Below, piece by piece: positions 14,955 through 42,986 of a stretch of 64,000 nucleotides of DNA; position 1 is the stretch's first letter; each line of letters starts with the position of its first letter. The stretch is taken from contig CAYVQE010000010.1 in the NCBI GenBank assembly GCA_964454005.1, positions 4,277 to 68,276 of the forward strand, given 5' to 3'. The notes beneath the pieces were generated by a model. It saw nothing but the letters and a program-made list of their open reading frames with translations, was not told the DNA's origin and did no database searches. A program made the translations under genes and the position numbers. This DNA is from an uncultured Myxococcales bacterium. GTDB taxonomy: Bacteria > Myxococcota > B64-G9.

Positions 14955-16216
<1,262 letters not shown>

Positions 16217-16220
<4 letters not shown>

Positions 16221-18872: not shown

Positions 18873-19456
18873 AGGCTCCCCTTGGTCGACGGCACCCGGG
18901 CGTCGCCGTCTCGGCCCACGGCCGCGCGCAGCGCCAGGGCCAGGGCCTTGAAGGCCGCCTCGGCCCGGTGGTGATCGTTGGCGCCGCGCAGCAGATCGAC
19001 GTGGAAGCAGCTGCGCCCGGCCAGGGCCAGCGAGCGCAGGAAGTGCTCGGCGTTCTCGGCGGCCAGCCCGCCGACGGCGTCGCGCTGTAGCGCCAGGTCC
19101 ACCTCGGCCCAGGGCCGGCCCGACAGGTCGACCACCGCCCGCGCCAGGGCCTCGTCCAGCGGGGCCAGAGCGTGGCCGAATCGCGCGATGCCGCGGCGCT
19201 CGCCCAGCGCCTCATCCAGCGCCGCGCCCAGCGCCAAGGCGCAGTCTTCGGCGGTGTGGTGCTCGTCGACCTCCAGGTCGCCGCTGCAGCGCAACTCCAG
19301 GTCGAAGCGGGCGTGGCGCACCAGGCTGGTGATCAGGTGATCCAGAAAACCGATGCCGGTGGCCACCTCGGCCCGGCCGCTGCCGTCCAGGCTCAGCTCC
19401 AGCCGGATGTCGGTCTCCTGCGTCCGGCGCGCGATCGCGGCGTTGCGGGTCTCCAT
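18869..19456 (-). CDS. hisB: imidazoleglycerol-phosphate dehydratase (monofunctional, 195 aa)
   Basis: [25 protein letters not shown]...[10 protein letters not shown]...[14 protein letters not shown]...[16 protein letters not shown]. No phosphatase domain. Confidence 0.95.
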
Positions 19457-21177: not shown

Positions 21178-21189
21178 GCTCCCCTCCCC

Positions 21190-22068
21190 TCAGGGCACCA
21201 GCTGGGCCAGCCGGGTGACCACCACGTCGCTGCCGCCACGGGCCTTGATCTCGGGGATGATGCGCGGCAGCTCGGCCCGCGGCACCGCGGCCTTGACCGC
21301 GAAGCCGGCCTCGCCGTGCAAGGTGGAGATGGTGGGCTCGCGCATGCAGGGCAGCGCGGCGACCACCGCCTCCAGCCGCTCCGGCGGCACGTTGACCTCG
21401 ACCATCACCCGCCGCCGCGCCTCGAGCACCGAGCCGAGCAGCAAACACAGTCGCTCCAGCGCCTCGCGCACCCGGGGCCGCTCGAGCGCCCGCGGGTTGG
21501 CGTAGAGCCGGGTCGACGAACGCATCAGCTCGTCGACAATCTGCAGACCGTTGGCGCGCAGGGTCGAGCCGGTGGCGGTGTTGTCGACGATGCAGTCGGC
21601 GTCGTCGGGTGGGAAGACCTCGGTGGCGCCGTAGGACAGCGCCAGCCTGGCATCGAGCCCGGTGCGCTCGATCCAGCCCGCGGTCAGCTGCTCATACTCC
21701 GAGGCCACCACCAGCGGCCGGGCCGGCAGGCGGCCTCCGACCAGCAGCCCGTGCGGCGCGGCGGCGACCAGCCGCACCGGATCCAGCCCGGTGTCGAGCA
21801 GCTCGACCAGGTCGGCGCCCCGCTCGGCCACCCAGTCGGCGCCGGCGAAGCCGGCGTCGCGCGAGCCGATGTGCAGCATCTGCACGATGTTCTGCGGCTT
21901 GAGCACCTTGACCGCGTAGCCCGGCAGCGAGATGCCCGGCCGGTAGTCGCGCTCGCCCAGGGCCACCTCGATGCCGGCGTCGGCCAGCAGGCCCAGCACG
22001 CCGCGCTGCATGCGTCCCTTGGGCAGGGCCAGCCGGATGGTCTCCTGTCCGCTGTCCTCTGTCGCCAT
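21190..22068 (-). CDS. hisG: ATP phosphoribosyltransferase, long form with C-terminal regulatory domain
   Basis: RLALPKGRM...VKVLKPQNIVQML..GSRDAGFAGADWV...DCIVDNTATGSTLRANGL. It occupies the last 292 codons of the spurious 1274-aa track ORF. ATG at 22068 is preceded by GGAGGTGAGGGG. Confidence 0.95.
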   Translation of the reverse strand: MATEDSGQETIRLALPKGRMQRGVLGLLADAGIEVALGERDYRPGISLPGYAVKVLKPQNIVQMLHIGSRDAGFAGADWVAERGADLVELLDTGLDPVRLVAAAPHGLLVGGRLPARPLVVASEYEQLTAGWIERTGLDARLALSYGATEVFPPDDADCIVDNTATGSTLRANGLQIVDELMRSSTRLYANPRALERPRVREALERLCLLLGSVLEARRRVMVEVNVPPERLEAVVAALPCMREPTISTLHGEAGFAVKAAVPRAELPRIIPEIKARGGSDVVVTRLAQLVP

Positions 22069-25129: not shown

Positions 25130-25642
25130 ATGGAATCGACCACTGCCAGCGAGCAGCCGGCGGCCAAGACGGGCGGCCGGCTGGCCTTTCGGATGCGCGA
25201 GACCATGGCCGGCGAGCACCGCTTCGTCGACGGCGCCGGCCCGCCGGGCAGCCACCCGCTCAGCTTCACCCTGGACTGGGGTCCCGAGCGGCTGGCCGCC
25301 TATCTCAACCCGCTGGACGCCGCTTTCATGGTCAACCGGGCGCTGGGCGAGATCGACGTCGGCGGCCTGGTGCGCGCGGCGCCGTGCAGCGGCGAGCTCG
25401 AGCTGCGCTACCTGCGCGATGCCAGCATCGTCTACCGGCTGGACTTCTCCGGCCCCGACGGCACCGCTTACCGCTACCAGGGCTGCAAGAGCGACATCCG
25501 GCCCTGGAACCTGCACCGCACGCACACCACCTGCCGCGGTACCATCGAGCGGGTGAGCGACGGCCGGCTGATCAGCGAGTCCACCGTCTACTTCGACCTA
25601 CGCACACTGCCGGCCTTTTTGGCCTCGTTCAGGCTGGGCTGA
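25130..25642 (+). CDS. hypothetical protein
   Basis: ORF with GGAGGA RBS and high GC3. First gene of a three-gene unit with TetR and SDR. Confidence 0.6.
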   Translation: MESTTASEQPAAKTGGRLAFRMRETMAGEHRFVDGAGPPGSHPLSFTLDWGPERLAAYLNPLDAAFMVNRALGEIDVGGLVRAAPCSGELELRYLRDASIVYRLDFSGPDGTAYRYQGCKSDIRPWNLHRTHTTCRGTIERVSDGRLISESTVYFDLRTLPAFLASFRLG

Positions 25643-25653
25643 GGGGGACGCGC

Positions 25654-26325
25654 TTGCCCACCGACCTGAGACAGCGCAAGGACGCTGCGCGCAAGGCGCA
25701 GACGCGGCGCAAGCTGCTCGACGCGGCCGCCGCGGTCTTCGCCCGCGACGGCTTCCACGGCCCGCGCATCTCGGACATCGTGGGCGCGGCCGGCGTGGGC
25801 CAGGGCACCTTCTACCGCTACTTCGACTCCAAGCGGGCCATCTTCGACGCCCTGTTCGACCGCCTGCTCGAGGAGCTGCTGGCCGAGTTCCAGCCCATGA
25901 GCGAGCAGCTGCCGCGCGACCTGGCCGAGTACCGCCACGCCTCGCGGGCGGTGGTGGGCCGGCTGGCCGCGGTGCTCGAGCGCGAACGGGCGCTGGTGCT
26001 GCTGCTGCTGCGCCAGGGCGCCTCGATCGACGCCGACTTCGCCGCCAAGCTGAACCGCACCACCGACCGCTTCGCCCAGATGGCCCGGTTCTATCTGGAG
26101 CACGCCATCGACCGCGGCTTCGCCCGGCCCTGCGACGCCGGGCTGGTGGCCCGCGGCCTGGTGGGCATGGCGCTGCACCTGCTGGAGCGCTGGCTGGACG
26201 ACGGGCTGGAGGGGCGCAGCGCCGAGGCGGTGGTCGACGAGATGGTCGAGTTCGCCTTTGCCGGCTTTGGTCCGAGATCGAACGGTCAAGAGTCGCCTGG
26301 AACTTCTGCAACGGGAGGGAGCTGA
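25654..26325 (+). CDS. TetR/AcrR family transcriptional regulator
   Basis: HTH region RRKLLDAAAAVFARDGFHGPRISDIVGAAGVGQGTFYRYFDSKRAIF. TTG start at 25654 after GAGGGGGA; the track ORF is 5'-extended through the previous gene. Confidence 0.9.
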   Translation: MPTDLRQRKDAARKAQTRRKLLDAAAAVFARDGFHGPRISDIVGAAGVGQGTFYRYFDSKRAIFDALFDRLLEELLAEFQPMSEQLPRDLAEYRHASRAVVGRLAAVLERERALVLLLLRQGASIDADFAAKLNRTTDRFAQMARFYLEHAIDRGFARPCDAGLVARGLVGMALHLLERWLDDGLEGRSAEAVVDEMVEFAFAGFGPRSNGQESPGTSATGGS

Positions 26326-26327
26326 AC

Positions 26328-27149
26328 ATGAGCCGGATGGAGAATGAGCGGGTGCTGATCACCGGCGGGGCGCGCGGCATCGGCCTGGCCACCGCGCGGG
26401 CCTTCGCCGCGGCCGGGGCCGAGCTGATTTTGACCGATGTGGACGAGGCCGCGCTGGACGCCGCCCGCGATGAGCTGGCCGGCATCGGGGAGCCCGGCCC
26501 CGGGGTGCACACCCGGCGGGTGGACGTGACCGACGCGGCCGCGGTGGCCGCGCTGGCCGCGTGGGTCGAGACCGATCTGGGCGGGCTGGACGTGCTGATC
26601 AACAACGCCGGCATCGGCCACCACGGCGAGATCGCCAAGACCCCGCTCGCCACCTGGCGCAAGCTGGTGGCGGTCAACCTGATGGGGCCCATCCACCACC
26701 TGGATGCCTTCCTGCCGGGCATGATCGAACGCGGCGCCGGCCAGGTGGTCAACGTCTCCTCGGGCCAGGCCTTCTTCCGCATGCCCACCTGGGGCGCCTA
26801 CGCAGCCATCAAGGCGGCGCTGGGCGTACTCAGCGAAGTGCTGCACTACGAGCTGCGCAAGCACGGCATCGCGGTGACCACGGTCTATCCCTACATGGTC
26901 AACACCGGCTTCTATGACGGCATCGAAGGAGAGACCTGGGCCGGGCGGCTGTCGATGAAGCTGCTGCCCTACTACTCGGACAGCCCGGAGAAGGTCGGCC
27001 GGCGCATCTTCGAGGCGGTGCGGCGGCGCAAGCGGGTCGAGCTGATCAGCCCCATCAACGAGGTGGCCTTCTACGGCCGGGTGCTGCCGCTGTTCAACCA
27101 GCTCATGTCGCGCACCAGCGCCTACTTCCTGGCCGGACGGGCCGACTGA
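26328..27149 (+). CDS. short-chain dehydrogenase/reductase (SDR)
   Basis: TGGARGIG, NNAG, S...YAAIKAA (YxxxK). Confidence 0.9.
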   Translation: MSRMENERVLITGGARGIGLATARAFAAAGAELILTDVDEAALDAARDELAGIGEPGPGVHTRRVDVTDAAAVAALAAWVETDLGGLDVLINNAGIGHHGEIAKTPLATWRKLVAVNLMGPIHHLDAFLPGMIERGAGQVVNVSSGQAFFRMPTWGAYAAIKAALGVLSEVLHYELRKHGIAVTTVYPYMVNTGFYDGIEGETWAGRLSMKLLPYYSDSPEKVGRRIFEAVRRRKRVELISPINEVAFYGRVLPLFNQLMSRTSAYFLAGRAD

Positions 27150-31063: not shown

Positions 31064-32185
31064 TCACAGATCCTCCAGCGCCTCCTGATCGGCCCGGCTC
31101 GGCTGGCGCTTGAACTCGACCACCGCCTTGTAGGCCAGCGTGATCCGCGGCCGGCCGCCTTCGCCGATGCAGGACAGCACGATGCGCGTCCAGTCGGTCT
31201 CCCAGACCGCCTGCAGGGTCAGCTGGCCGGCGGCCACCGCCCGCATGGTGTCGCTCTGGCGCCGATCGGCGGCGGTCTGCCAGACCCGGCCGCTGCGGTA
31301 GGCCTGGCCGTACTTGCGGCCGAGCAGCTCGCGCAGCCGCTGGTAGTCGGCCAGCACCCGCCCGCCGCCGCGCCGGGTCGAAGGCGGCTCGAACAGCACC
31401 ACCGCCTCACGCACGATGCCTTCCGAGAAGCGGTAGAACACCTTGGCCGGCCGTCCGGCCACCGCACCCTGCCAGACCAGATCGCGGCTGTTGGCCAGCG
31501 GCATCACGTCCGGCTCGGCCTCCATCACCTGCGGTCGCGTCATGCCCCAGCGCACGTCGCGCAAGCCGTGGCAGCGCGGCAGCGCACCGGCCTTGCGCCG
31601 CTTATACAGCCGCAGCGCGCGCACCGCCTTGCCCGAGCGGGCCCCGTGGGCGGCCAGCGCGCGCAGCGTCTCGGCACGGCCGGGCCCGCGCGCGAAGCGC
31701 GCCTGCTCCAGCGGGGTCTGGCCCTCGGCGTCCAGGGCGTTGACCTCGGCCCCGACCGCGATCAGCCGCCGCACCAGCCCGGCCCGGCCGCGGCTGGCCG
31801 CCCGGTGCAAGGGGGTGACCCCGTTCTGATCGGCCTTGTTCACGTCGGCCCCGGCCGCCAGCAGCCGCTCGGCGAGCGCGCTGTGGCCGTTGGCCACCGC
31901 CAGCTGCAGCGGTGTGATGCCCTCGGCATCGCTGACATCGGGCGCAGCGCCGTGCTCGAGCAGCAGCTCGGCGATCTCGTGTTGGCCGTGGGCGGCGGCG
32001 TGGTGCAGCGCGGTCCAGCCGCGGGCGTCGTGGGCGTCCACATCGGCGCCGGCGTCGAGCAGGCGCTGCACCGCGTGGAAGCGATTCTGGCGGGCGCGCT
32101 GGACCAGTTCCGGCGCTGCGCCGGCGGCGGCCAGCGCCGGCAGCAGCCAGACCAGTAGCGGGATCGCCAATCGCAGCCGCTCCAT
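31064..32185 (-). CDS. secreted ankyrin-repeat protein with an uncharacterised C-terminal domain
   Basis: Signal peptide LLVWLLPALAAAGA. Four ANK units (GWTALHHAAAHGQHEIAELLLEHGA, GITPLQLAVANGH, GVTPLHRAASRGR, GQTPLEQA). Confidence 0.85.
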   Translation of the reverse strand: MERLRLAIPLLVWLLPALAAAGAAPELVQRARQNRFHAVQRLLDAGADVDAHDARGWTALHHAAAHGQHEIAELLLEHGAAPDVSDAEGITPLQLAVANGHSALAERLLAAGADVNKADQNGVTPLHRAASRGRAGLVRRLIAVGAEVNALDAEGQTPLEQARFARGPGRAETLRALAAHGARSGKAVRALRLYKRRKAGALPRCHGLRDVRWGMTRPQVMEAEPDVMPLANSRDLVWQGAVAGRPAKVFYRFSEGIVREAVVLFEPPSTRRGGGRVLADYQRLRELLGRKYGQAYRSGRVWQTAADRRQSDTMRAVAAGQLTLQAVWETDWTRIVLSCIGEGGRPRITLAYKAVVEFKRQPSRADQEALEDL

Positions 32186-33209: not shown

Positions 33210-34052
33210 TCAGGCTGCGGCGCGGGCGGCGGCTCCGGTGGACAGCAGCAGCACGCCGATCAGGATCAGGCCGATGATGCCCAGCTGGGCGATCGGGGGT
33301 GGGTCGGCGTAGAGGCCGGCCTCGAGCAGCAGCGGGGTGATGACCGCGGCGGCGTTGACCGCCGGCACCACCTCCAGGGCGCGGCCGCGCAGGAAGCCGA
33401 GCTGGGTCACGGCGGTGGCCGTGCCGGCGAACAGCAGGGCGATGTAGGGATAGGGTGTGGTCAGCTGGCCGGCCAGCGAGCCGCCGGCGCGCACCAGCCC
33501 GGCATCGCCCAGAAAGATGGCCAGCCCGATGCAGGCGCCGGCCGCCAGGCCGTATGCCATGCCGTGGATGCGCCGCCAGCGCAGCGCCGCCAGGCAGCCG
33601 GCCGCGCACAGCAGCACCATGCCGGCGGCGGCCCACACCAGCTGGCCGTCGTCCAGCCGGCGGGCGCCGATCTCGTGTTCGGCGCCCAGCAGCGCCAACA
33701 CCGAGGTGCCCACCACCACCAGCGCCATGCCCAGCCAGTCGGTGCGGCCCATGGGCTCGCCGATGACCTTGAGCGCGTAAAGGGTCAGCCCGATCAGACC
33801 GACGCCGGTCATGGCGGCGATGGCCGAGGGTGACTTGGACAGCATCAGCCCCACCGAGTAGGGCAAGGCCGCCCCGGCGGTGATGGCCAGGCCCAGCAGC
33901 CAGATAAACAGGTCGCGGCGCTGCGGCCGGGCGAACATGCGCCGGCCGTGTAAGAACACGCCCACCTTCTGCTTCTGCACCCCCTTGCCGATGTTCATCA
34001 TCAGCGCGGCCAGGATGCCGAACAGGATGCCGAGGATGAATCCGCTGTCCAC
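33210..34052 (-). CDS. integral membrane transporter, DMT superfamily / NIPA-like
   Basis: About 9 hydrophobic segments. N-terminal ILFGILAALMMNIGKGVQK resembles the NIPA/DUF803 signature. Confidence 0.75.
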   Translation of the reverse strand: MDSGFILGILFGILAALMMNIGKGVQKQKVGVFLHGRRMFARPQRRDLFIWLLGLAITAGAALPYSVGLMLSKSPSAIAAMTGVGLIGLTLYALKVIGEPMGRTDWLGMALVVVGTSVLALLGAEHEIGARRLDDGQLVWAAAGMVLLCAAGCLAALRWRRIHGMAYGLAAGACIGLAIFLGDAGLVRAGGSLAGQLTTPYPYIALLFAGTATAVTQLGFLRGRALEVVPAVNAAAVITPLLLEAGLYADPPPIAQLGIIGLILIGVLLLSTGAAARAAA

Positions 34053-34076
34053 GTTTGCCGTTCCTTCGCGGGTGCT

Positions 34077-34889
34077 TCAGGAAAACCTCTCGTACAGGCC
34101 CCAGCGGCTGGAGCGCGCCCAGCGGATGGCCCGCTCGACCAGGCCCGGCGACAAGCGGTGGACCCAGCGGCCGAGCTGGCCCACCGGTGTCATAACCAGC
34201 TCGCGGCGCCGGCGGCGCATCATGTGCAGGATCTGCCCGGCGGCCTCGTCCTGGCTGTGGTGCGCCGGCCGGTCGGGCGGCACCGGGCTGCCGTCGGCGG
34301 CCAGGATGCTCTTCTGCGGGTCGTGCTCGGTGAAGCCCAGGTAGATCACACCCACGTGCACCCCGGCCGCGGCCAGCTCGATGCGCAGCGACTCGGCCAG
34401 CCCGGTCAGCGCCATCTTGGAGGCGCAGTAGACCGAGGCGCCCGGCAGGCCGAACAGCCCGGCGATGCTGGAGACGAACAGCAGCTGGCCGTGCGCGGCG
34501 ATCAGATGTTCGGCCGCCGCCCGCGACAGGTAGACGCTGCCCAGCAGATTGGTCCGAATCACCCGCTCGCAGACTGCCGGGTCCAGCTCGGCGAACTCGC
34601 CGCGCATCGACACCCCGGCGTTGTTGACCACCGCATCCAGCCGGCCGAAGCGCTCCACGGCCGCGGCCACCAGCCGCTCGGCGTCGTCTCGCTGGCCCAC
34701 GTCGCCGGCCAGCGCCTCCACCCGGCCGCCGTCGCGCCGCAGCGCATCGCGGGTCTCGATCAAGCGCTGCTCGCCGCGGGCGCCCAGCATCACCCGGGCC
34801 CCCTCGGCCACCAGCCGGGCCGCCAGGGCCCGGCCCACCCCGCGGCTGGAGCCGCTGATCAACACCACCTTGTCCCGATAGCTATCCAT
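34077..34889 (-). CDS. short-chain dehydrogenase/reductase (classical SDR)
   Basis: SGSSRGVG, NNAG, S...YCASKMA. Confidence 0.9.
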   Translation of the reverse strand: MDSYRDKVVLISGSSRGVGRALAARLVAEGARVMLGARGEQRLIETRDALRRDGGRVEALAGDVGQRDDAERLVAAAVERFGRLDAVVNNAGVSMRGEFAELDPAVCERVIRTNLLGSVYLSRAAAEHLIAAHGQLLFVSSIAGLFGLPGASVYCASKMALTGLAESLRIELAAAGVHVGVIYLGFTEHDPQKSILAADGSPVPPDRPAHHSQDEAAGQILHMMRRRRRELVMTPVGQLGRWVHRLSPGLVERAIRWARSSRWGLYERFS

Positions 34890-34904
34890 GGCTGCACCCC
34901 TCGA

Positions 34905-35903
34905 TCAGATGTGGCCGTAAGTCCGCAGGCTGCGCACGCTCTGGGCGATGGCCGCGTCGACCGGCGTTTGCTGCAGGCTCAGCTGCTCCACCGCCCGCGA
35001 CGCGTCGTAGTAGGTGCCGCACAGCGCCAGCCGCGCCAGGCGCCGGTCCAGCGGCGGCCGGCGGCCGCTCAGCCGGCCGTAGAGCGAGCCGGCCAGACCG
35101 GCTGCCCGCACCGCCCCGGCCGGCAAGGTGGCCAGCGGCGCCGGCGCGCCGCCGGCGATGCGCGCCACCCGGGTGAAGAAGTCGCGGTAGCTCAGGTTGT
35201 GGCCGCCGGCGATGTAGCAGCCGCCGCGCTCGCCCTTGTGGAAGGCGGCCAGCAGGGCGCCGGCCACGTCGCCGGCGCAGGCGAAGTTGCGCCCGCCGGG
35301 CGAGACGAAGCGCATGCGCCGCAGCAGAAACTGCCGGATCAGCTCGCCCGAGCTGGGCCGCCAGTCCAGCTCGCCCAGCAGAAAGGTCGGCGCCACCACC
35401 ACCGCGTCCAGCCCGCGCTCGGCCGCGTAGCGCTGCACCAGCCGGGTGGCCCGGTGCTTCGACTCCATGTAGGCGATGCCGCGGTAGGCCTCCGGAAAGC
35501 CGCCCCGCTCGTCGCCCGGCCGCTCGCGGGAGCCGAACTGGAAGGACGAGGCCGAACCGGTGAACACCAGCCGCTCGACCCCGGCCGCCAGACAGGCGTC
35601 GGCCACCCGCCGGGTGCCCTCCAGGTTGACCGCCCACACCTTGGCGGGCGGCGCCCACAGGTCGGTGATGGCCGCGCAGTGGAAGACCGCCCGGCAGCCG
35701 TCGGCGGCCCGGGCCAGCTCGGCACCCCGGCCCAAGAGATCGCCGGGGGTCTGTTCGATGTCCAGCCCCTCGAGCACCGGCGAGTCCGAGCCCGGCTGCA
35801 CCAGCACCCGCACCCGCCAGCCTGCCTGCAGCAGCCGGCGCACCAGGTGGGCGCCCAGCAGGCCGTCGCCGCCCAGCACCAGGGCCCTGTCGCTCGTGGT
35901 CAT
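34905..35903 (-). CDS. NAD(P)-dependent epimerase/dehydratase-family (extended SDR) reductase
   Basis: VLGGDGLLGAHLVRRL Rossmann motif. YMESK (YxxxK). Dihydroflavonol/aldehyde-reductase-like length. Confidence 0.9.
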   Translation of the reverse strand: MTTSDRALVLGGDGLLGAHLVRRLLQAGWRVRVLVQPGSDSPVLEGLDIEQTPGDLLGRGAELARAADGCRAVFHCAAITDLWAPPAKVWAVNLEGTRRVADACLAAGVERLVFTGSASSFQFGSRERPGDERGGFPEAYRGIAYMESKHRATRLVQRYAAERGLDAVVVAPTFLLGELDWRPSSGELIRQFLLRRMRFVSPGGRNFACAGDVAGALLAAFHKGERGGCYIAGGHNLSYRDFFTRVARIAGGAPAPLATLPAGAVRAAGLAGSLYGRLSGRRPPLDRRLARLALCGTYYDASRAVEQLSLQQTPVDAAIAQSVRSLRTYGHI

Positions 35904-35945
35904 GTCCGCCTCCTCGTCCGGCTCTTCCGGCTCGTCCCGCCCGCG

Positions 35946-36851
35946 TCAGCTCCAGCGCGGCGCGAACCCCTCGTGTGCAAATGCGGCCGCGAAACGCTCG
36001 CGCCCGGCCGCGTCCAGCGTCTCGCGGGCCATATCGGGCTGGCCGCGGCCGATGCGGCGGTGCTTGCCGCGGGCCAGGCTGTTGTAGGCCAGCAGCTCCA
36101 CCGGGCCGCGGCAGCCGGCCGCGGCCAGGGCCCCGGCCAGGCCGGCGGCCGCCGCGGCATCGGCGTTGAAGCCCGGGATCACCGGCACCCGGGGCAGCAC
36201 CCGCTGCGGCCCGACGCGGGCCACCAGGGCGGCCAGGTTGGCCAGGATGCGGCCGTTGCCGCGACCGCTGCCGGCCCGGTGGGCCGCGTCGTCGGCGTGC
36301 TTGAGGTCGTAGAGGAACAGCTCCACCCGCGACGCCAGCGCCTCGAGCAGCCCGGCCGGGTAGAGACCGCAGGTCTCCACGGCCCGGTGCAGCCCGCGCG
36401 CGCCCAGCGCGTCGAGCAGGGCCAGCAGGAAGTCCGGCTGGGCGCTGGGCTCGCCGCCGCTGATGGTGACCCCGCCGCCCGAGCGCTGGTAGAAGGCGGC
36501 GTCGCGGGCCACCCGCTCGGCCACCGCCGCGGCGCGCATGGGCTGGCCGATGCGGTGCTGGGCGCCCTCAGGGCAAACCGCGGCGCAGGCGCCGCAGCCG
36601 CGGCAGCGGGCCGCATCGCGCACCAGGCCCCGCGGCCCGTCCAGCAGCGCGCCCTGCGCACAGGCCCGCAGGCAGCGGCCGCAGCCGCGGCAGCGCGCCG
36701 GCCACCAGCCCATCTCGGGCGCGGCCCGCTGCGACTCGGGGTTGTGACACCAGGCGCAGCGCAGCGGGCAGCCCTTCAAGAAGACGCAGCTGCGGATGCC
36801 CGGCCCGTCGTGCAGGCAGTAGGCCTGGATGTCGAACACGAGGCCGGTCAT
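35946..36851 (-). CDS. glycyl-radical enzyme activating protein (radical SAM, with two extra ferredoxin-like clusters)
   Basis: FDIQAYCLHDGPGIRSCVFLKGCPLRCAWCHNPE (CxxxCxxC). CRGCGRCLRAC and CRGCGACAAVCP. GGGVTISGGEP. Confidence 0.9.
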   Translation of the reverse strand: MTGLVFDIQAYCLHDGPGIRSCVFLKGCPLRCAWCHNPESQRAAPEMGWWPARCRGCGRCLRACAQGALLDGPRGLVRDAARCRGCGACAAVCPEGAQHRIGQPMRAAAVAERVARDAAFYQRSGGGVTISGGEPSAQPDFLLALLDALGARGLHRAVETCGLYPAGLLEALASRVELFLYDLKHADDAAHRAGSGRGNGRILANLAALVARVGPQRVLPRVPVIPGFNADAAAAAGLAGALAAAGCRGPVELLAYNSLARGKHRRIGRGQPDMARETLDAAGRERFAAAFAHEGFAPRWS

Positions 36852-36930
36852 GGCTTCGGTTCTCGTTGCGGCTGCCGCGTCCACGCGCTCTCCTGGTTCC
36901 TCCCCCGCCCTGCGGGCGGCGGGCGCCGGC

Positions 36931-39531
36931 CTAGGCGTGCTCCGTGCGATCGATGATCTCCTGCTGGATCTCGGGGCCCAGCTCGGTGAAGTAGCTCGAG
37001 TAGCCGCCCACCTTGACCACCAGGTCGCGGTACTCCTCGGGCTGCTGCTGCGCGGCGCGCAGCATCTCGGCCGAGGCGCAGGTGGGCTGCAGCTGGGCGC
37101 CGCCCAGGGCGAAGTAGGTGCGCAGCAGCGCGACGAACTTGGCGCGCTGGGCCGGGCTGCGGCCCACCGCGCTGGGGTGCAGCTTGACGTTGACCGCCGA
37201 GCCCATCACGTCGGCCAGCGGCAGCGCCGCCACCGAACGCAGCGCCGCGGTCAGCCCGCAGCGCTCCACGTTGGCCGGGTTGCAGGAGGCAGCGAAGGGC
37301 ACCCCGGCCCGCCGGCCGTCCGGGCTGGCGATGGACAGCCGGCCGTCCAGGGTGTGGGTGATCATGCTGATGACGTAGACGACGAAGGGCCCGCCCTTGT
37401 GCGAGCGCAGGCCGTAGGTCTCGGCGAACAGCGCGCCCATCACCTCGGCCGCCAGACCGTCGCAGGCCGGATCGCCGTTGCCCCACTTGCCCGGCAGCTC
37501 GCGGATCCGGCGCAGCATGTCGCCGCAGCCTTCGAAGTCGGCGTCGATCGCTCGCAGCAGTTGCTGCAGGCTGAAGCGGCGCTGCTCGAACACCAGCTCG
37601 CGGATGACGTGCAGCGAGTCGGCCAGGTTGGCGATGGAATTGATCATGGAGATGCCGGACAGGTCGTAACGCGCCCCGCCGCAGGTGACGTCGGCGCCGC
37701 TGTCGGCGCAGCCGTCCATGAAGGCCGAGATCAGCGGCGCCGGCAGCTGCTCGGCCATCACCGCGTCGCGCAGGTTGGACGCCGCCGCGATCTGGTCGAT
37801 GGCCGCGCGGCCCTGGCGCACCACGGCGGCCTTGAAGTCGTCGAAGCGCTCGAAATCGGCCGCCGCCCCGGTGCGCGGCCCGGCGCCGCGTATGGTGCCG
37901 GCCAGCAGCCGGGCGTCGCCGTTGCGCAGGGTCATGTCCAGCAGGCGGGCCAGCAGCAGGGCGTTGGCCCCCATGGAGCCGGTCTTGCCCGGCACGCAGG
38001 TCTCGACACAGCCCATCACGGCATAGTCGCGGGCGTCGGCCGGGCTGACGCCGCGGCGCTCGAGCGCCTCGATCTGCACCTCGTCGTTGAACAGCGAAAA
38101 GCTCGAGGTGCCGGCGGCCAGGTAGGCGGCCACCGCGTCCAGCAGCCGCTGCGGGGTGCCGGGGTGGACGCGCAGCGACACGTTGGTCACCGCCTTGGAG
38201 CCGTGGGCGGCGGCCAGCACCAGCTCGGTCACGGCGTTGCTGGCGTCGCCGCCGCCGGGCCGCTGGCCGCCCACGGTCACCGGCGCCGAGCCCAAAAAGC
38301 GGTGGTAGAAGTTGGACAGCAGCCCGGACTCGGGGCGGATGTTCTGGCTCATGATCTTGAGCAGCAGCTCCTCGAGCAGCATGCGGGCGCCGGCGGCGTC
38401 GATGCGGCCGGCGGCCCGATCGGCCTGGTAGAAGGGCTGCAGCGACTGATCCAGCCGGCCGAAGCAGTGCAGGTTCATCGGGTGCGCCAGCTCGACCGCG
38501 GTCTTGACAGTCCACAGCGCCTGCACCGCCTCGGCGAAGGTGGCCGCCGGGCGCAACGGCACCCGGGCGCAGCGCGCGGCCAGCGCGGCCAGCTCGGCGC
38601 GGCGCTGCGGATCGGTGGCGGCGGCGCGCCGGGCCGCAACGTGCGCGGCCAGCCGCCGGGCGAAGACCATCACGCCTTCCAGGGCCAGCTCCTGGCCGCG
38701 CAGGTCGGCCGCCCGCCGGCCGCCGGCGGCCCGCTCGGCCGCCGCCCGGCGCTCGGCCAGCTCGTCGCGCATGGCCAGCAGGCCGCGGGCCAGCACCCGG
38801 TCGTAATCCAGGATGACGTGGCCCTGCAAGGTGGCGATGGTGGCGCAGGGGCTGACCATCATCACCTGGCGCGAGGTATTGCCCGGCACGGCGGTGACGA
38901 AATCGTGCATATCGGCCGAGTACAGCCCGCTGCGCTCGAGCTCGCGCTGCAGCGCATCGACCATGCTGCGGCCGCGCCAGTAGGGCAGCAGCTCGCCCAG
39001 CAGCTCGCGGCGGTCGGCCGCATCGATGGCGAAGGCGTTGATGGCGCGGCGGGTCATGGGTGTCAGGCCCACGTCCAAAGGGGCCCGGCCGTCGCTGCGG
39101 GTGCGGCGCTGGTTGCGCGCGAACTCGAGCAGGGCCCGCTTGCGCAGCAGGTAGCCCAGGGCCTTCGACAGGCTGCGGCCGCGGTGGCGCAGCATGGCGC
39201 CGGTGCTCAGCTCGGCCTCCAGCACCTGGTTGAACACGCCGCGCTCGATGTCGATGGGCACGCCGAAGAAGTGCTCCGTCCAGGCGCCGGCGATGCGCTC
39301 GTCGCCGTCGAGCTGGTGGTCCATGTGCTGGTACACGTGGCGCATGGCCAGCGCCACCCGCTCCACCCGGGCCAGGCCGCGGCCCTCGGTGGCGCGCCAG
39401 CTGGCGGTGTACAGCCGGGCGCGCTGTACGGAGATGCGCGGCGGGGTATCCTGGTAGCGGCGCCGCAGCCGGGTTGTGCGGGCGGCGTCGCGGCGTTCGG
39501 CGTCCGGCGCGACGGCGGCTTCGGCGCTCAC
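36931..39531 (-). CDS. glycyl radical enzyme, PFL2/glycerol-dehydratase-like family, substrate unknown
   Basis: 866 aa. Thiyl-loop MGCVETCVPGKTG (GCxE). C-terminal glycyl motif VVKVGGYSSYFTEL. GTG start overlaps the TetR stop (GTGA). Confidence 0.92.
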   Translation of the reverse strand: MSAEAAVAPDAERRDAARTTRLRRRYQDTPPRISVQRARLYTASWRATEGRGLARVERVALAMRHVYQHMDHQLDGDERIAGAWTEHFFGVPIDIERGVFNQVLEAELSTGAMLRHRGRSLSKALGYLLRKRALLEFARNQRRTRSDGRAPLDVGLTPMTRRAINAFAIDAADRRELLGELLPYWRGRSMVDALQRELERSGLYSADMHDFVTAVPGNTSRQVMMVSPCATIATLQGHVILDYDRVLARGLLAMRDELAERRAAAERAAGGRRAADLRGQELALEGVMVFARRLAAHVAARRAAATDPQRRAELAALAARCARVPLRPAATFAEAVQALWTVKTAVELAHPMNLHCFGRLDQSLQPFYQADRAAGRIDAAGARMLLEELLLKIMSQNIRPESGLLSNFYHRFLGSAPVTVGGQRPGGGDASNAVTELVLAAAHGSKAVTNVSLRVHPGTPQRLLDAVAAYLAAGTSSFSLFNDEVQIEALERRGVSPADARDYAVMGCVETCVPGKTGSMGANALLLARLLDMTLRNGDARLLAGTIRGAGPRTGAAADFERFDDFKAAVVRQGRAAIDQIAAASNLRDAVMAEQLPAPLISAFMDGCADSGADVTCGGARYDLSGISMINSIANLADSLHVIRELVFEQRRFSLQQLLRAIDADFEGCGDMLRRIRELPGKWGNGDPACDGLAAEVMGALFAETYGLRSHKGGPFVVYVISMITHTLDGRLSIASPDGRRAGVPFAASCNPANVERCGLTAALRSVAALPLADVMGSAVNVKLHPSAVGRSPAQRAKFVALLRTYFALGGAQLQPTCASAEMLRAAQQQPEEYRDLVVKVGGYSSYFTELGPEIQQEIIDRTEHA

Positions 39532-40184
39532 GATTCCTCCTCGACCACTGCGGCCGGCGGGGCGATGTCGGCCAGCAGCACCTCGATCAGGTGGTGCAGG
39601 TGGCGCTTGCGCGCGGCCAGGCCGGCGGGCGCCAGCGGGTCGGCGCCCAGCAGCCGGCCCAGCACGCCGTCGTAGGTGAAGTAGGTGATGATCATGCCGT
39701 AGACGCTGGTCAGCAGCTGGGCCGCGTCCATGGCGCCGCCGCGGGTGGCCGGGAAGGCCTGCTGCAGCAGCTCGATGCCGGTGGCGAACAGCGGCTCGGT
39801 GCGCGCGTGCACCAGATCCATGTGGCGGCCGCCCGAGGCCTCGCGCTGCACGATGCGCAGAAAGCCGCGGTTGGCGGCCAAAAAGTCGACGTAGCCGTCG
39901 ACCAGCCGCAGCAGCTTGTCGCGCAGATCGGCCCCGGCGGCCAGGGCCTCGAGCAGGGTGGTGGCCAGCGCGTCGTAGTAGCGGTCCAGCACTTGGACCA
40001 GCAGGCCGTCCTTGTTCTCGAAGTGGTAGTGGATCAGGGCCTTGTTGACCCCCGAACGCTCGGCGATCTCGCGGGTGGAGGCGGCGTCGAAGCCCAGCTC
40101 GCCGAACAGAGCGTCGGCCGCGTCCAGGATGCGCTCGCGGGCACCGGCCGCTTGGCGGCCGTTCTGGGCGGCGCCGCGGCTCAT
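39528..40184 (-). CDS. TetR family transcriptional regulator embedded in the GRE cluster
   Basis: ILDAADALFGELGFDAASTREIAERSGVNKALIHYHFENKDGL. ATG overlaps the ACAD stop (ATGA). Confidence 0.9.
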   Translation of the reverse strand: MSRGAAQNGRQAAGARERILDAADALFGELGFDAASTREIAERSGVNKALIHYHFENKDGLLVQVLDRYYDALATTLLEALAAGADLRDKLLRLVDGYVDFLAANRGFLRIVQREASGGRHMDLVHARTEPLFATGIELLQQAFPATRGGAMDAAQLLTSVYGMIITYFTYDGVLGRLLGADPLAPAGLAARKRHLHHLIEVLLADIAPPAAVVEEES

Positions 40185-41383
40185 AGCTGCTCGGCCGCCT
40201 TGAGCATGAGGGTCTCGTTGGTGCCGTCCATGATGCGCAGCAGCTTGGCGTCGCGGGCCAGCTTCTCCAGGCTGTACTCGCGCGAGATGCCGTAGCCGCC
40301 CAGCACCTGCACCATCTCGGCGGTGTGTGCCACCGCCTGCTCGGTGGCGAAGACCTTGGCCGACAGGCTGGTGGCCAGATCGCCCGGGAAGCGGGTGGCG
40401 GCCAGCCAGGAGCCGCGCCACAGGTAGGCGCGGGCGGCCTCCAAGGCCGTTTTGCAGCGCATCAGCTTGTCGGCCACCAGCTGGTGGCCGAGCAGGGGCT
40501 TGCCGCCCTGCACGCGCTCTCTGGCGTGGGCCAGCGCGTCTTCGAATGCGGCCCGCATCAGGCCCAGCGCCAGGTAGCCCACCCCCAGGTTGCCCACCGT
40601 GATGATGGCGTTGTGCAGCATGGGGTAGCCCTCGCCGTGGGGAAAGAGCAGGTGGTCGTCGGGGATCTCGACGCCGTCGAAGTAGACCGCGGCCTGGTTC
40701 AGGGTGCGCAGGCCGGTCTTGTCCAGCGCCTTGCCGGTGCTCACCCCGGGCGCGTCGGCCGGCACCACGAAAGCGCCCGAGCCGCAGATGCCCTGCTCGG
40801 GCTCGACGCAGGCGAAGACCAGGTGCACCGAGGCGATACCGCCGTTGGAGATGAAGTCCGACTTGGCGCCGTCGATCACCCAGCCGCCGTCGATCTTGCG
40901 CGCCCGGGTGCGGTGGCGGATCCGCGGATCGTGGTAGTTCTTGCCGTCCGAACCCACCTCGGGCTCGCTCGAGCACCAGCCCGAGATGTGCTGCGCCCGC
41001 TCGTCGGCGCAGAAGGGCTGCAGGTAGCGCTCGATCAGGGTCTGGTTGTCGGGCGCCAGAAAGGCGATCAGCCGCGGCACGGTGGCCGCCGGCATCAGGC
41101 TGGCGGCGAAGCCCGGGCCCCAGCGGCCCAGCTCCTCCCAGACCATGCCGCTGGTGTTGGCGTCGAGCCCCAGGCCGCCGGCCGCCTCGGGCAGGGCCAT
41201 CTTGTGGAAGCCCAGCCCGTAGGCGCCGCGCATGGCCGACCAGAAGCGCTCGCTGGCGAAGACCGCCTCCGGCTCGGCCCACAGGTCCAGCTCGCGCTCG
41301 GCCGGCTGCAGCACCTCCTGGCCGAAGCCGCGGGCGGTCTCGATCACCATCTTCTGGGTCTCGGTCAGGGCGAAGTCGATCAT
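40181..41383 (-). CDS. acyl-CoA dehydrogenase-family flavoprotein
   Basis: ACAD fold motifs (GSDGKN.., GWVIDGAKSDFISNGG, LGGYGISREYSLEKLARDAKLLRIMDGTNE). Asp sits where MCAD has the catalytic Glu (IYEGT). Confidence 0.9.
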   Translation of the reverse strand: MIDFALTETQKMVIETARGFGQEVLQPAERELDLWAEPEAVFASERFWSAMRGAYGLGFHKMALPEAAGGLGLDANTSGMVWEELGRWGPGFAASLMPAATVPRLIAFLAPDNQTLIERYLQPFCADERAQHISGWCSSEPEVGSDGKNYHDPRIRHRTRARKIDGGWVIDGAKSDFISNGGIASVHLVFACVEPEQGICGSGAFVVPADAPGVSTGKALDKTGLRTLNQAAVYFDGVEIPDDHLLFPHGEGYPMLHNAIITVGNLGVGYLALGLMRAAFEDALAHARERVQGGKPLLGHQLVADKLMRCKTALEAARAYLWRGSWLAATRFPGDLATSLSAKVFATEQAVAHTAEMVQVLGGYGISREYSLEKLARDAKLLRIMDGTNETLMLKAAEQL

Positions 41384-41386
41384 GGC

Positions 41387-42154
41387 TCACCCCCCGGTGC
41401 TGAAATCAGTCATCTTGAAGTAGTGCGGCAGGAAGGCCTCGGCGTCGACCTCGCCCAGCACCTCGCCGGGCCGCATCACGTTGTCGCTGACCAGCAGGGC
41501 GGCCACCATCACGTCGACCACCTCCACCTCGGCCCAGGGATCGAAAGCCGACTCGCGCAGCGTCACCTCGGCCGAGCCCACCCGCACCTGCCGCGGCGTC
41601 ACCTCGGTCTGCTGGCGGCACAGCAGGACGGGTCCGTCGAAGCCGGGCTGCAGGTCGATGCGCGGGCTGGCCTTGAACAGGAAGTTGGGCCCGGCCGCGG
41701 GCAGCTCGTCGAGCTCGGCCAGCAGCCGGGCCTCGATCTCGACGAAGCGCACGCCGTGGCGCTCGACGCTGCCGCGAACGCTGTCGCCGTCCTCTTCGAG
41801 TTCGATGGAGGCCTTCTTCTTGGGGAAGCCGAAGATGTCGCGGCCGTTGTAGATGCGCGACTCCTGGCTGTCGATGGGCATGGACAGGCAGTAGTTGCCG
41901 GCCTCGCCGGCGTGGCGGCAGCCGATGAACAGCGCCGCCTCGCGGTAGCCCGGGCCCAGGTTGGTCTGCGGGTAGCTGGCGATGAACATCATGGCCCGCG
42001 CCACCTCGTCCGGCTCCAGCGGCGGCGGCAGCAGCCGCTCGACGATCTGCGGCCGGGTGGTGAACATGACCGCCAGCATGCGGGCGCCTTCGAAGCGCCG
42101 CTCACCGAGCGCGTAGTAGGCCTCGAGTTCCTCTTGCGACTTGACGAATCCCAC
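41387..42154 (-). CDS. acetoacetate decarboxylase (ADC) family protein
   Basis: GRDIFGFPKKKA matches the ADC Schiff-base Lys-Lys region. 255 aa. GTG start after AAAGGGGGAG. Confidence 0.85.
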   Translation of the reverse strand: MGFVKSQEELEAYYALGERRFEGARMLAVMFTTRPQIVERLLPPPLEPDEVARAMMFIASYPQTNLGPGYREAALFIGCRHAGEAGNYCLSMPIDSQESRIYNGRDIFGFPKKKASIELEEDGDSVRGSVERHGVRFVEIEARLLAELDELPAAGPNFLFKASPRIDLQPGFDGPVLLCRQQTEVTPRQVRVGSAEVTLRESAFDPWAEVEVVDVMVAALLVSDNVMRPGEVLGEVDAEAFLPHYFKMTDFSTGG

Positions 42155-42230
42155 GGCTCCCCCTTTCCTCAGGGCAATTGACTGGGCGCCCGGTTAAGAT
42201 GACAGCATAGACCACCCTCGTCAAGCCCTT

Positions 42231-42248
42231 TTTGGGCGATCGCCCAAA
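42231..42248. promoter_or_regulatory. perfect 18-bp palindrome TTTGGGCGATCGCCCAAA in the divergent intergenic region (candidate operator)
   Basis: Read from the sequence. 77 nt upstream of the ADC-family start, adjacent to a TTGACG on the minus strand. Confidence 0.45.
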
Positions 42249-42286: not shown

Positions 42287-42315
42287 TTGACATACTGATG
42301 CAATGCATGTATGTC
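42287..42315 (+). promoter_or_regulatory. candidate sigma-70-type promoter TTGACA-N17-TATGTC for vapBC
   Basis: The -10 element ends 7 nt before the vapB ATG (42323), implying a leaderless or near-leaderless transcript. The spacer contains atgcaatgcat palindromic motifs. Confidence 0.45.
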
Positions 42316-42322
42316 TGGATGC

Positions 42323-42571
42323 ATGAGGACCACCATTCGACTCGACGATGCCCTGCTGGCCGCGGCCAAGCAGGAGGCGGCCCGCTCGGGCCGGACTTTG
42401 ACCGCGGTCATCGAGGATGCGCTGCGCCAGGCCCTGGCGCAGCGGGATGGCGGGCGCGGCGAGCCGGTGGAGCTGATCACCTGCGGCGGCCGCGGGTTGC
42501 AGCCCGGGGTGGATCTGGACGACTCGGCCGCCTTGCTCGACCTCATGGACGGCGGCGGTGATCCTGCCTGA
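42323..42571 (+). CDS. vapB: type II antitoxin, ribbon-helix-helix VapB-like
   Basis: MRTTIRLDDALLAAAKQEAARSGRTLTAVIEDALRQAL is a typical RHH antitoxin N-terminus. Overlaps the vapC start. Confidence 0.8.
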   Translation: MRTTIRLDDALLAAAKQEAARSGRTLTAVIEDALRQALAQRDGGRGEPVELITCGGRGLQPGVDLDDSAALLDLMDGGGDPA

Positions 42572-42986
42572 CGTCAACGTGCTGGTCTACGCCCACCGGC
42601 GGGACGCGCCCGATCATCGGGCCTACCGCGACTGGCTGGCGGCCGTGGTCAACGGCGATCAGGCCTACGGCCTGGCCGACCTGGTGCTCAGCGGGCTGTT
42701 GCGGGTGATCACCCACCCGCGCGTGTTCGATCCGCCCACCCCGCTGGCCCAGGCCCTGGCCTTCGCCGACCAGCTCCGCCTGCGGCCGCACTGCGTGCCG
42801 ATCGCGCCCGGACCGCGCCACTGGGAAATCTTCCTGTCGCTGTGTCGGGATAGCGCGGCCCGCGGCAACCTGGTGCCGGACACCTACCTGGCCGCCCTGG
42901 CCATCGAGTCCGGCAGCCAGTGGATCACCACCGACCGCGACTTCAGCCGCTTCCCCGGCCTGCGCTGGCGCCATCCGCTGGCCTAG
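42558..42986 (+). CDS. vapC: type II toxin, PIN-domain ribonuclease VapC
   Basis: ILPDVNVLVYAH..., ...YLAALAIESGSQWITTDRDFSRFPGL (PIN acidic residues D5, D/E about 40, D about 98, D about 117). Confidence 0.9.
   Translation: MILPDVNVLVYAHRRDAPDHRAYRDWLAAVVNGDQAYGLADLVLSGLLRVITHPRVFDPPTPLAQALAFADQLRLRPHCVPIAPGPRHWEIFLSLCRDSAARGNLVPDTYLAALAIESGSQWITTDRDFSRFPGLRWRHPLA
42590..42698 (+). repeat. copy 1 (inside intact vapC) of a 109-bp direct repeat
   Basis: Identical to 45440..45548 except one base (g/t at 42684/45534). Confidence 0.9.

Follow-up and report, generated by a model that had tools for sequence, protein, structure and literature searches.

We describe a cluster of eight co-directional genes, built around a glycyl radical enzyme (GRE), at positions 33210–42154 on the minus strand of a 64-kb stretch of DNA from an uncultured Myxococcales bacterium (contig CAYVQE010000010.1; the whole stretch is called the window below). 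Very probably, these genes form a catabolic operon that is functional and regulated and whose GRE represents a new clade. Their arrangement is far beyond chance, and dozens of loci in other phyla carry the same gene set. On the basis of profile scores and residue mapping, the GRE belongs to a clade that has no characterised member, and the system as a whole works like a GRE eliminase pathway, yet belongs to no known family.

In the direction of transcription, the open reading frames (ORFs), delimited by ORF calls and translation of the window, encode an acetoacetate decarboxylase (ADC)-family protein (41387–42154; 255 aa; PF06314, E = 3e-46), an acyl-CoA dehydrogenase (ACAD)-family flavoprotein (40181–41383; 400 aa; three ACAD Pfam domains), a TetR-family regulator (39528–40184; 218 aa; TetR_N at E = 4e-17, and TetR_C_29), the GRE (36931–39531; 866 aa; PF02901, PFL-like, at 396 bits and PF01228, Gly_radical, at 66.5 bits), its radical S-adenosylmethionine (radical-SAM) activase (35946–36884; 312 aa, or 301 aa from an internal ATG; TIGR02494), an extended short-chain dehydrogenase/reductase of the HpnA/3-beta-hydroxysteroid dehydrogenase (3-beta-HSD)/SdmB-like type (xSDR; 34905–35903; 332 aa), a classical short-chain dehydrogenase/reductase with a C-terminal extension (SDR; 34077–34889; 270 aa; adh_short, E = 5e-49) and a polytopic membrane protein, possibly a permease of the drug/metabolite transporter (DMT) superfamily (33210–34052; 280 aa). 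All eight lie on the minus strand. From the ADC gene onwards, a 3-nt gap is followed by two 4-nt overlaps (ATGA, then GTGA) and by gaps of 46, 42, 15 and 24 nt, so that the TetR gene is coupled translationally at both ends, to the ACAD gene through ATGA and to the GRE gene through GTGA. No Pfam or transporter family could be assigned to the membrane protein at threshold: it has a weak match to ArnE, and its orthologs match EamA and SMR below threshold (E = 0.0015–0.04). The first-pass annotation of this DNA had listed the same eight genes at the same positions; its labels stand for seven of them by Pfam and NCBIfam, while the NIPA/DMT label that it gave to the eighth is weak.

Conservation and control of the cluster

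Gene neighbourhoods were surveyed by tblastn with the eight window proteins against related loci, and species-representative genomes were scanned with the GRE, which yielded 79 loci, without exception in metagenome-assembled genomes (MAGs). Partner genes were counted in 50 non-redundant loci in which the GRE is at least 54% identical to that of the window; all of these are again from MAGs, and many of the contigs are truncated, making the counts lower bounds. The xSDR gene is found in 40 of the 50 loci, the SDR gene in 39 and the ADC gene in 36. ACAD occurs in 35 loci and adjoins ADC in 35 of the 36 that carry the latter, in the order ADC then ACAD. A TetR ortholog lies directly upstream of the GRE gene in 35/50, and the activase gene is next to it in 28/50. 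Orthologs of the membrane protein close the cluster in nine loci, mostly of Myxococcota, and are 49–61% identical to the window protein (97% in locus L005). The usual gene order is TetR-GRE-(AE)-xSDR-SDR-ADC-ACAD-(MEM), AE being the activase and MEM the membrane protein. Several loci, L002, L019, L029 and L030 among them, have the GRE, xSDR and SDR genes and no ADC-ACAD pair in the sequence examined, and the cluster therefore looks like two modules.

The partner genes are co-conserved across about ten bacterial phyla (as labelled in the records), which answers in the affirmative the check on neighbourhood conservation proposed in the first-pass annotation. Labelled sources of GRE loci include Myxococcota, Hydrogenedentota, Actinomycetota, Planctomycetota, Nitrospirales, Thermodesulfobacteriota, Gemmatimonadota, Dehalococcoidia and Spirochaetota, as well as Promethearchaeota and Helarchaeota at 45–53% identity; below about 53% GRE identity the partner genes vanish. 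One MAG, DATKZS01, holds two whole-cluster copies (L010 and L017). In metagenomes, there are more than 300 GRE protein clusters (at the 90% identity level) that are 58–66% identical to the GRE over its full length, and homologue searches with the GRE, the ADC and a uroporphyrinogen decarboxylase (URO-D)-like protein discussed below returned only metagenome or MAG proteins without an informative name. The first-pass annotation had regarded a GRE as unexpected in a mostly aerobic lineage. This view does not hold: since many Myxococcota MAGs carry the cluster, with at least 13 related loci coming from Myxococcota or ‘Deltaproteobacteria’ MAGs and a 95%-identical relative, L005, from an uncultured Myxococcales MAG, its occurrence in this group is not surprising.

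The cluster also appears to have its own regulatory site. A 20-bp palindrome, TTGACTGGGCGCCCGGTTAA, lies at 42178–42197, 24 nt ahead of the start codon of the ADC gene; no other match to its motif occurs in the 64-kb window, where chance would give 0. When 757 kb of sequence from 41 related loci was searched with the pattern TT[AG]AC[CT][GA]N2-6[CT][AG]GT[CT]AA, 18 matches were found in 15 of the 41 loci, all 18 of them no more than 400 nt upstream of a cluster gene. The consensus is TTAACYGG-N-CCRGTTAA, and a shorter variant, TTGACCGnnCGGTCAA, often occurs twice, 30 nt apart. Judged by this conservation, the cluster-specific 20-bp palindrome is probably the TetR operator, and there is good in silico evidence for a dedicated, autoregulated repressor–operator unit. 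The earlier suggestion of TetR control thereby gains support, although the site on which it leaned was another one. The 18-bp perfect palindrome named there, TTTGGGCGATCGCCCAAA, is present at 42231–42248; we rejected it as the operator because only L005 shares it with the window, the other loci being without it.

The GRE and its relatives

The GRE has the two motifs reported for it in the first-pass annotation, the thiyl loop with GCVE (MGCVET, 506–511) and the glycyl motif VVKVGGYSSY (838–847). An AF2 model (pLDDT 86, pTM 0.89) confirms the PFL-like fold, and Foldseek retrieves with it more than 40 GRE structures at TM 0.76–0.82 and 24–28% identity, glycerol dehydratase (GD) and 1,2-propanediol dehydratase (PD) ranking at the top and HypD and CutC being among the closest thereafter. 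At the sequence level, the enzyme is about equidistant from CutC, IseG, HpsG, YbiW, PflD, GD, PD and HypD (about 263–345 bits, all PDB sequences). It lies under all NCBIfam equivalog cut-offs, which it misses about threefold, and under that of the subfamily model TIGR01774, which places it outside the characterised clades, in line with the first reading of the sequence.

The HMMER alignment with CutC shows which residues are retained. C508 and E510 of the loop G507-C508-V509-E510 align with C489 and E491 of CutC, and H238, which is invariant among the relatives, aligns with D216. By published alignments, the latter would be the position of His164 in GD. In GD, His164 is the acid that protonates the leaving hydroxyl (PMC13450708). 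Y208, T334, F395, T502 and Y506 of CutC correspond to T231, N353, S415, G521 and L525 of the GRE. The three middle ones, T334, F395 and T502, presumably occupy the positions of S282, Y339 and D447 in GD, again by published alignments. T231, S415, G521 and L525 are smaller than their counterparts in CutC, GD or HypD. In the C–S lyases IslA, IseG and HpsG, the sulfonate is anchored by two Arg and one Gln (PMC13450708); R187, Q191 and R676 of IseG map to I232, Q236 and Y719 here, so that of the sulfonate anchors only the Gln is kept. The comparison around GCVE that the first-pass annotation had called for thus finds the Cys-x-Glu (CXE) pair kept and the binding residues of CutC and the sulfonate lyases replaced. 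Because C508, E510 and H238 are kept while the substrate-binding residues differ, we place the GRE, by this mapping, as a CXE-type eliminase with a probable dehydratase-type His but without the binding residues of any known substrate class.

Membership of the individual families was rejected on the following grounds. For CutC, the score is 336 bits where the model (TIGR04394) requires 1050, D216 is replaced by H238, and Y208, F395 and Y506 are replaced by Thr, Ser and Leu. For IslA/IseG/HpsG, both sulfonate Arg are lost (I232 and Y719), and the model for HpsG (sulfopropanediol dehydratase, NF048011), which is the best NCBIfam equivalog match, gives 355 bits against a cut-off of 1000. HypD is rejected by its model NF043068 (343 bits, cut-off 1100), and GD/PD by TIGR01774 (438 bits, cut-off 678) and by N353, S415 and G521 at substrate-binding positions.

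Two further features set the GRE apart: an N-terminal insertion relative to CutC of about 50–70 basic residues (about 85–155), and the glycyl motif itself. The latter reads K840-V-G-G843-Y-SSYFTE-L-GPEI-Q-QE-I-ID-R and fits the GRE fingerprint RVxG[FWY]x6-8[FL]x4Qx2[IV]x2R (PMC13450708) save for Lys840 in place of Arg. This Lys-for-Arg variant, already remarked upon in the first pass, is present but is not peculiar to this gene: the Lys is invariant in 86 relatives and is a hallmark of the whole superclade that they form. All 86 superclade GREs have KVGGYS, H238, S415 and H726, and all have Q236-G237 and N353 except for a subgroup of six loci (L010, L014, L015, L017, L020 and L033), in which H/Q/L-A-H stands at 236–238 instead of Q-G-H, and Tyr instead of Asn at 353. 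This subgroup may mark a shifted substrate specificity.

Within the superclade, the cluster-linked clade has GCVE and Y719, and a sister clade (L030 at 60% identity, L055, L057 and L059–L083; mostly 45–53% identical; for example L072:9998–12574) has G/S-C-V/T-D and F719. In the sister clade, Cys-x-Asp thus stands where all characterised GRE eliminases and isomerases have Cys-x-Glu. Sister-clade loci often have two tandem GRE paralogs with one activase. Next to them lie genes for an MFS_2 sugar transporter, an FGGY kinase, a DeoC aldolase and an iron-dependent alcohol dehydrogenase (Fe-ADH), and because of these neighbours a carbohydrate-type, polyhydroxylated substrate is suggested for the whole superclade.

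The activase, whose gene adjoins that of the GRE, scores 290 bits against TIGR02494 (cut-off 174) and has Radical_SAM and Fer4 domains, a CX3CX2C motif (C39-x3-C43-x2-C46) and an insert of the ferredoxin type with two clusters. The system resembles GD and PD (PDB 1r8w, 5i2g and 9rco) in having an activase of its own that contains such an insert; other shared features are the ten-stranded barrel, the top Foldseek ranks (TM 0.79–0.81), the Cys-x-Glu loop and, probably, a His at the His164 position and a Tyr (Y719) at the strand position that resembles Y640 of GD. However, identity to GD and PD is only 24–26%, the present enzyme differs from them by its N-terminal insertion and its fingerprint Lys, and the operon is without shell genes or PduP/PduQ/PduL-type or DhaT-type partners, having instead two SDRs, the ADC, the ACAD and the TetR. 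A tblastn probe with a PduA-like shell protein gave no match in the window or in related loci, and no microcompartment shell appeared in the Pfam-annotated gene tables.

YbiW and PflD, which open the ring C–O bond of 1,5-anhydro-hexitol-6-phosphates in ‘anhydroglycolysis’ (June 2026 GRE review), share with the GRE the CXE motif and the chemistry that we propose for it, namely H abstraction from a carbinol followed by C–O cleavage to a ketone. They act on carbohydrate substrates, and the GRE scores 277–278 bits against them, similar to other eliminases, but they form separate clades with about 26–28% identity. Their neighbours are a kinase and an aldolase, as in the sister clade of the GRE, whereas the window cluster has neither. 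The same review lists GD, PD, HpfG/HpsG, HypD, HpyG, HpzG, CutC and IslA/IseG as characterised eliminases and HplG, YbiW and PflD as characterised isomerases, and whole clades, as well as all archaeal PFL-like GREs, are still without a function in it; no system listed there has the partner set of this operon. Likewise, a search of a literature library that included GRE papers since 2023 found no paper that links a GRE with an ADC and an ACAD, and none that describes the cluster; a paper on benzene activation had no bearing on it. The impression recorded in the first-pass annotation, that the pairing of a GRE with an ADC, an ACAD and reductases is unfamiliar, is in agreement with both.

Proposed pathway and its alternatives

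The model that we tentatively favour, and consider plausible, is that of a TetR-inducible anaerobic catabolic operon in which a dehydratase-type GRE generates a carbonyl compound, the SDR pair processes this carbonyl, and ADC and ACAD form a separable downstream module. The substrate is probably a hydroxylated compound, carbohydrate- or polyol-like. The TetR would sit on the conserved 20-bp palindrome over the promoter and be released when the inducer is present. The activase would place a radical on Gly843 of the GRE, and the resulting thiyl radical of Cys508 would take an H from the carbinol carbon, with Glu510 deprotonating the substrate hydroxyl and His238 protonating the neighbouring oxygen leaving group; the residues are in place, and the chemistry assigned to them is modelled on that of GD. 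The net reaction would be a C–O 1,2-elimination in which either a vicinal diol or polyol loses water or the C–O bond of an ether or ring is opened, yielding an aldehyde or ketone. The xSDR and SDR, always encoded side by side, would act on this carbonyl product or its immediate precursor by alcohol/carbonyl interconversion, or possibly by conversion of an aldehyde to an acyl-thioester. ADC would decarboxylate a beta-keto acid through a Schiff base at Lys112, and ACAD, with Asp386 as base, would convert a short acyl-thioester; this ADC-ACAD step is the weakest of the model. The small membrane protein would move the substrate or product. As a further layer of the same model, and with the same reserve, the operon may spread horizontally among uncultured anaerobes.

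For the decarboxylase step, the catalytic residues are visible in the sequence. ADC scores 158 bits against PF06314 (cut-off 29.8), its PDB sequence matches are true ADCs only (3bgt, 3c8w and 3bh2), and R19, Y70, E72, G109, P111 and K112-K113 (the last four within a G-x-P-K-K motif) correspond to the catalytic residues of ADCs. Y70, E72, G109, P111 and K112 do not vary in an alignment of 40 sequences, in which R19 is found in 37/40 and K113 in 38/40. We therefore predict a Schiff-base beta-keto-acid decarboxylase, although the equivalog-like model NF002614 (71 bits, cut-off 150) is unreached. The aligned Arg, Glu and Lys-Lys are common to the clostridial and Chromobacterium acetoacetate decarboxylases (PF06314, family I), which differ in that the present operon is without their CtfAB CoA-transferase partner and has its ADC paired with an ACAD and linked to a GRE.

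The ACAD has the domains PF02771, PF02770 and PF00441, each above its cut-off, and its best PDB matches are dehydrogenases of the short-chain and butyryl-CoA types (E = 1e-44 to 1e-52). It reads I-M-D386-G-T where PDB homologs have I-Y-E-G-T, the catalytic Glu (at the position of Glu376 in medium-chain acyl-CoA dehydrogenase, MCAD) being replaced by Asp, and Met385 and Asp386 are invariant in 37/37 sequences. An Asp at this site is also found in LvaC and ACAD10/11, ACAD-fold 4-phosphoacyl-CoA eliminases that perform non-standard chemistry on substituted acyl-CoAs (PMC10802472). We rejected membership of this type: despite the shared Asp, the ACAD is nearer to the short-chain and butyryl-CoA dehydrogenases, the HCMR motif is found in 0/37 sequences, and no LvaA-type kinase is nearby. 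The ACAD orthologs also share a family-specific insertion after the TEPxxGSD-type motif (residues about 140–160; window 40900–40970), within which G147, Y150, D152 and H157 are invariant.

The two SDRs are less easily assigned. The xSDR scores 207 bits against HpnA (cut-off 368), 136 bits against SdmB and 82 bits against OleD, with the HpnA and SdmB cut-offs unreached; its PDB matches are 3wj7, NSDHL (6jkg) and DFR/CCR enzymes, and several of these best matches (HpnA, SdmB, NSDHL, OleD, DFR/CCR) act on beta-hydroxy or beta-keto acids. The classical SDR exceeds the cut-off of NF004825 (250 bits, cut-off 215), a family without an assigned function, and its PDB matches are (3R)-hydroxyacyl-CoA dehydrogenase, clavaldehyde dehydrogenase and FabG. 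The G-A-R that follows its beta-strand 2 suggests that it uses NADP(H). In three lineages, the pair is fused into one protein of 600–611 aa, in MAGs of Hydrogenedentes, Myxococcota and Actinomycetes (L002:12651–14453; L084:13505–15340; L086:13362–15167). The fused proteins reach up to 245 bits against HpnA, and their SDR half resembles PRK07201 (NF005539) at 145–152 bits. PRK07201, to which NCBIfam assigns no function, probably covers FAR-like fatty acyl-CoA reductases, which have an N-terminal extended SDR and a C-terminal SDR.

The conservation of Q236, H238, N353, S415 and H726 in nearly all 86 superclade GREs speaks for the favoured operon model, as do the synteny and its modular pattern, the SDR fusions, the cluster-specific operator motif, the CXE motif and His238, the GD and PD structures at the head of the Foldseek list, the neighbours of the sister clade, the intact catalytic residues of ADC and the fact that Asgard relatives still combine a GRE with an ADC. 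A survey of accessory genes, in which all flanking ORFs were clustered and 148 neighbours were subjected to a Pfam census, adds the hint of an aldehyde, since an aldehyde:ferredoxin oxidoreductase (AFOR) lies beside the cluster twice. Apart from these two AFORs, the only recurrent accessory genes encode TauE, the URO-D-like protein and extra TetRs.

Several observations weigh against the model. The substrate-binding residues of GD, CutC and HypD are not conserved (N353, S415, G521 and L525 stand here). The GRE loop 400–415, with invariant Y409 and R411, would bear on the charge of the substrate if it lines the pocket. Among the 148 neighbours there is no recurrent gene for a binding protein, a kinase, a CoA ligase or transferase, a hydratase, a thiolase or an electron transfer flavoprotein (ETF), and the acyl-thioester expected for ACAD is therefore without an evident source. 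A TauE/SafE-family permease gene is located at the end of the cluster or beside it in ten loci (including L004, L013, L015, L022, L024, L025 at 18180–18932, L026, L054 and L058; the window has none), which hints at an anionic product that has no place in the model. Finally, in the Asgard loci L042, L047, L049 and L051 (Promethearchaeota), the GRE gene is accompanied by one for an ADC-family protein and one for a GlcD-like FAD protein, and no SDRs and no ACAD are found. L049, the only Asgard locus with a full annotation, additionally encodes a TrmB regulator, a CCG iron-sulfur protein and another GRE that is unrelated to the first. With a GlcD-like flavoprotein and a CCG protein in place of the SDRs and ACAD, these loci have no simple fit.

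A different order of steps, with decarboxylation first, strikes us as rather unlikely but deserving of attention. Here, xSDR would oxidise the 3-hydroxyl of a 2,3-dihydroxy (sugar) acid, ADC would remove CO2 from the beta-keto acid so formed, SDR, as an NADPH-type enzyme, would reduce the alpha-hydroxy-ketone to a 1,2-diol, and the GRE would dehydrate this diol to an aldehyde. The trio xSDR-ADC-SDR would then be redox-neutral, like ERG26/ERG27 in sterol C4-demethylation, in which a beta-hydroxy acid is oxidised and decarboxylated and the ketone is reduced; the analogy fits the presence of a beta-keto-acid decarboxylase in the operon. As in ERG26/NSDHL/SdmB with ERG27, a 3-beta-HSD-type extended SDR stands beside a classical SDR, and SdmB and NSDHL are among the sequence matches, but the family cut-offs are unreached and no sterol or hopanoid genes are nearby. 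This order would suit the xSDR relatives SdmB, NSDHL and OleD, all of which act on beta-hydroxy or beta-keto acids, the intact catalytic set of ADC, the NADPH signature read from the SDR sequence, the fusions, which are what one would expect of an oxidise-then-reduce pair, and the small-diol dehydratases that head the structural matches of the GRE. On the other hand, ADC goes with ACAD and not with the SDRs and is missing from several loci that have the GRE, xSDR and SDR, the gene order has the GRE ahead of the SDRs and ADC, ACAD is left without a role, and in the Asgard loci the place of the SDRs is taken by a dehydrogenase of the GlcD type, which is one for 2-hydroxy acids.

We regard it as unlikely that the GRE is a radical ether (C–O) lyase, which would take an H from the carbinol beside an ether oxygen and expel an alkoxide or aryloxide, for example from lignin-derived arylglycerol beta-aryl ethers or from alkyl glyceryl ethers. 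In this reading, the remaining hydroxy-ketone side chain would be broken down by the SDRs, ADC and ACAD via a beta-keto acid, and methyl ethers would be the target of the URO-D-like protein. A leaving group with an ether oxygen could receive its proton from His238, YbiW and PflD offer a precedent for ring C–O cleavage, and the smaller pocket residues (T231, S415, G521 and L525) and the extra N-terminal insertion could be read in the same way, but the case is purely one of chemical analogy. The URO-D-like protein, of 500 aa, is encoded between TetR and GRE in seven bacterial loci. Its N-terminal domain resembles HMG-CoA_red_N and CGDB, and the protein is distantly related to the corrinoid methyltransferases CdmB and MtaA (L008:8444–9970; L049:12569–14074; L004:8424–9959). 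In a Promethearchaeota locus, it adjoins the GRE and is 68% identical to the copy of an uncultured bacterium, and a corrinoid-binding protein lies beside its gene in L004 and L049, an Actinomycetota and an Asgard locus. However, the URO-D-like gene is present in a minority of loci, and elsewhere it occurs with neither a corrinoid protein nor a GRE, standing alone in L087 and L089 and having a TetR of the same kind as its sole companion in L088; no aromatic-ring catabolic genes recur among the 148 neighbours.

It is less likely still that the operon serves the biosynthesis or tailoring of a membrane lipid (a hopanoid, a sterol-like compound, or a diol or ether lipid) rather than catabolism. HpnA is the best family match of xSDR (207–245 bits including the fusions), the sterol demethylase SdmB is another, the SDR half of the fusions resembles PRK07201, and the helix-turn-helix (HTH) region of the TetR resembles those of the lipid regulators FasR, PsrA and FadR. 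Against this stand the unreached HpnA and SdmB cut-offs, the lack of recurrent hopanoid, sterol or lipid biosynthesis genes nearby, the patchy distribution across phyla with two copies in one MAG, and the self-contained repressor–operator unit, which is more typical of accessory catabolism.

Cleavage of a C–S or C–N bond in a sulfonate or amino alcohol, as by IslA/HpsG or CutC, with a TauE-type permease exporting sulfite or another anion, appears very improbable. It would account for the permease in the ten loci and for HpsG as the best equivalog match of the GRE, but the Arg pair that would anchor a sulfonate is replaced here, with the Gln alone kept; the position of D216 in CutC is taken by His and its aromatics by Thr, Ser and Leu; all equivalog cut-offs are missed about threefold; and TauE is absent from the window. 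Chance neighbourhood, or a decayed and inactive GRE copy, can be dismissed, being contradicted by synteny across about ten phyla, invariant catalytic residues, a G+C content at third codon positions (GC3) of 0.95–0.97 in seven of the eight genes (the TetR gene was outside the filtered ORF list), two start/stop overlaps and an operator that is specific to the cluster.

Beyond the operon model preferred above, it is conceivable, albeit with a good deal of doubt, that the KVGG-type superclade catalyses a GRE transformation not yet known, for example radical C–O cleavage of a polyol, ether or sugar-acid-derived substrate that abounds in sediments, coupled to Schiff-base decarboxylation. If so, the operon would represent a new anaerobic carbon-degradation pathway in about ten bacterial phyla, with a reduced form in Asgard archaea, and would offer a first way into the function of an archaeal PFL-like GRE. 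Among the anaerobic radical enzymes, no class is growing faster than the GRE eliminases, and each new clade has so far revealed a route for an abundant compound: choline, hydroxyproline, isethionate and anhydro-sugars. The present clade is large, with its more than 300 clusters, and is found only in uncultured anaerobes from sediments, groundwater and digesters. Its self-contained gene set is unusually informative, as a repressor with a defined operator offers a direct route to the inducer and hence to the substrate. Moreover, the invariant Lys of the glycyl fingerprint provides a test case for activase specificity, and the Cys-x-Asp sister clade one for the role of the CXE glutamate.

Surroundings of the operon

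Because the flanking genes, which encode PIN, ankyrin-repeat, Exo_endo_phos and PKD proteins, are unrelated to the operon, the eight-gene block is a discrete island. Divergent from the cluster promoter, at 42311–42986 on the plus strand, a PIN-domain gene (142 aa) follows a small overlapping ORF (86 aa), the two being probably a toxin–antitoxin pair. Just downstream of the cluster, at 31064–32185 on the minus strand, is the gene of a 373-aa ankyrin-repeat protein, and about 6 kb from the cluster, at 25384–27149 on the plus strand, a second TetR gene (313 aa) immediately precedes that of a classical SDR (273 aa). The G+C content of the window is about 70%, and that of positions 16000–22000 is clearly higher, at 75–77%. 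In the Hydrogenedentes locus L002, a nine-gene haem biosynthesis operon (L002:1–9879), running from GlutR (hemA-type) to ferrochelatase and a protoporphyrinogen-oxidase-like amine oxidase, precedes the GRE, which is probably a coincidence.

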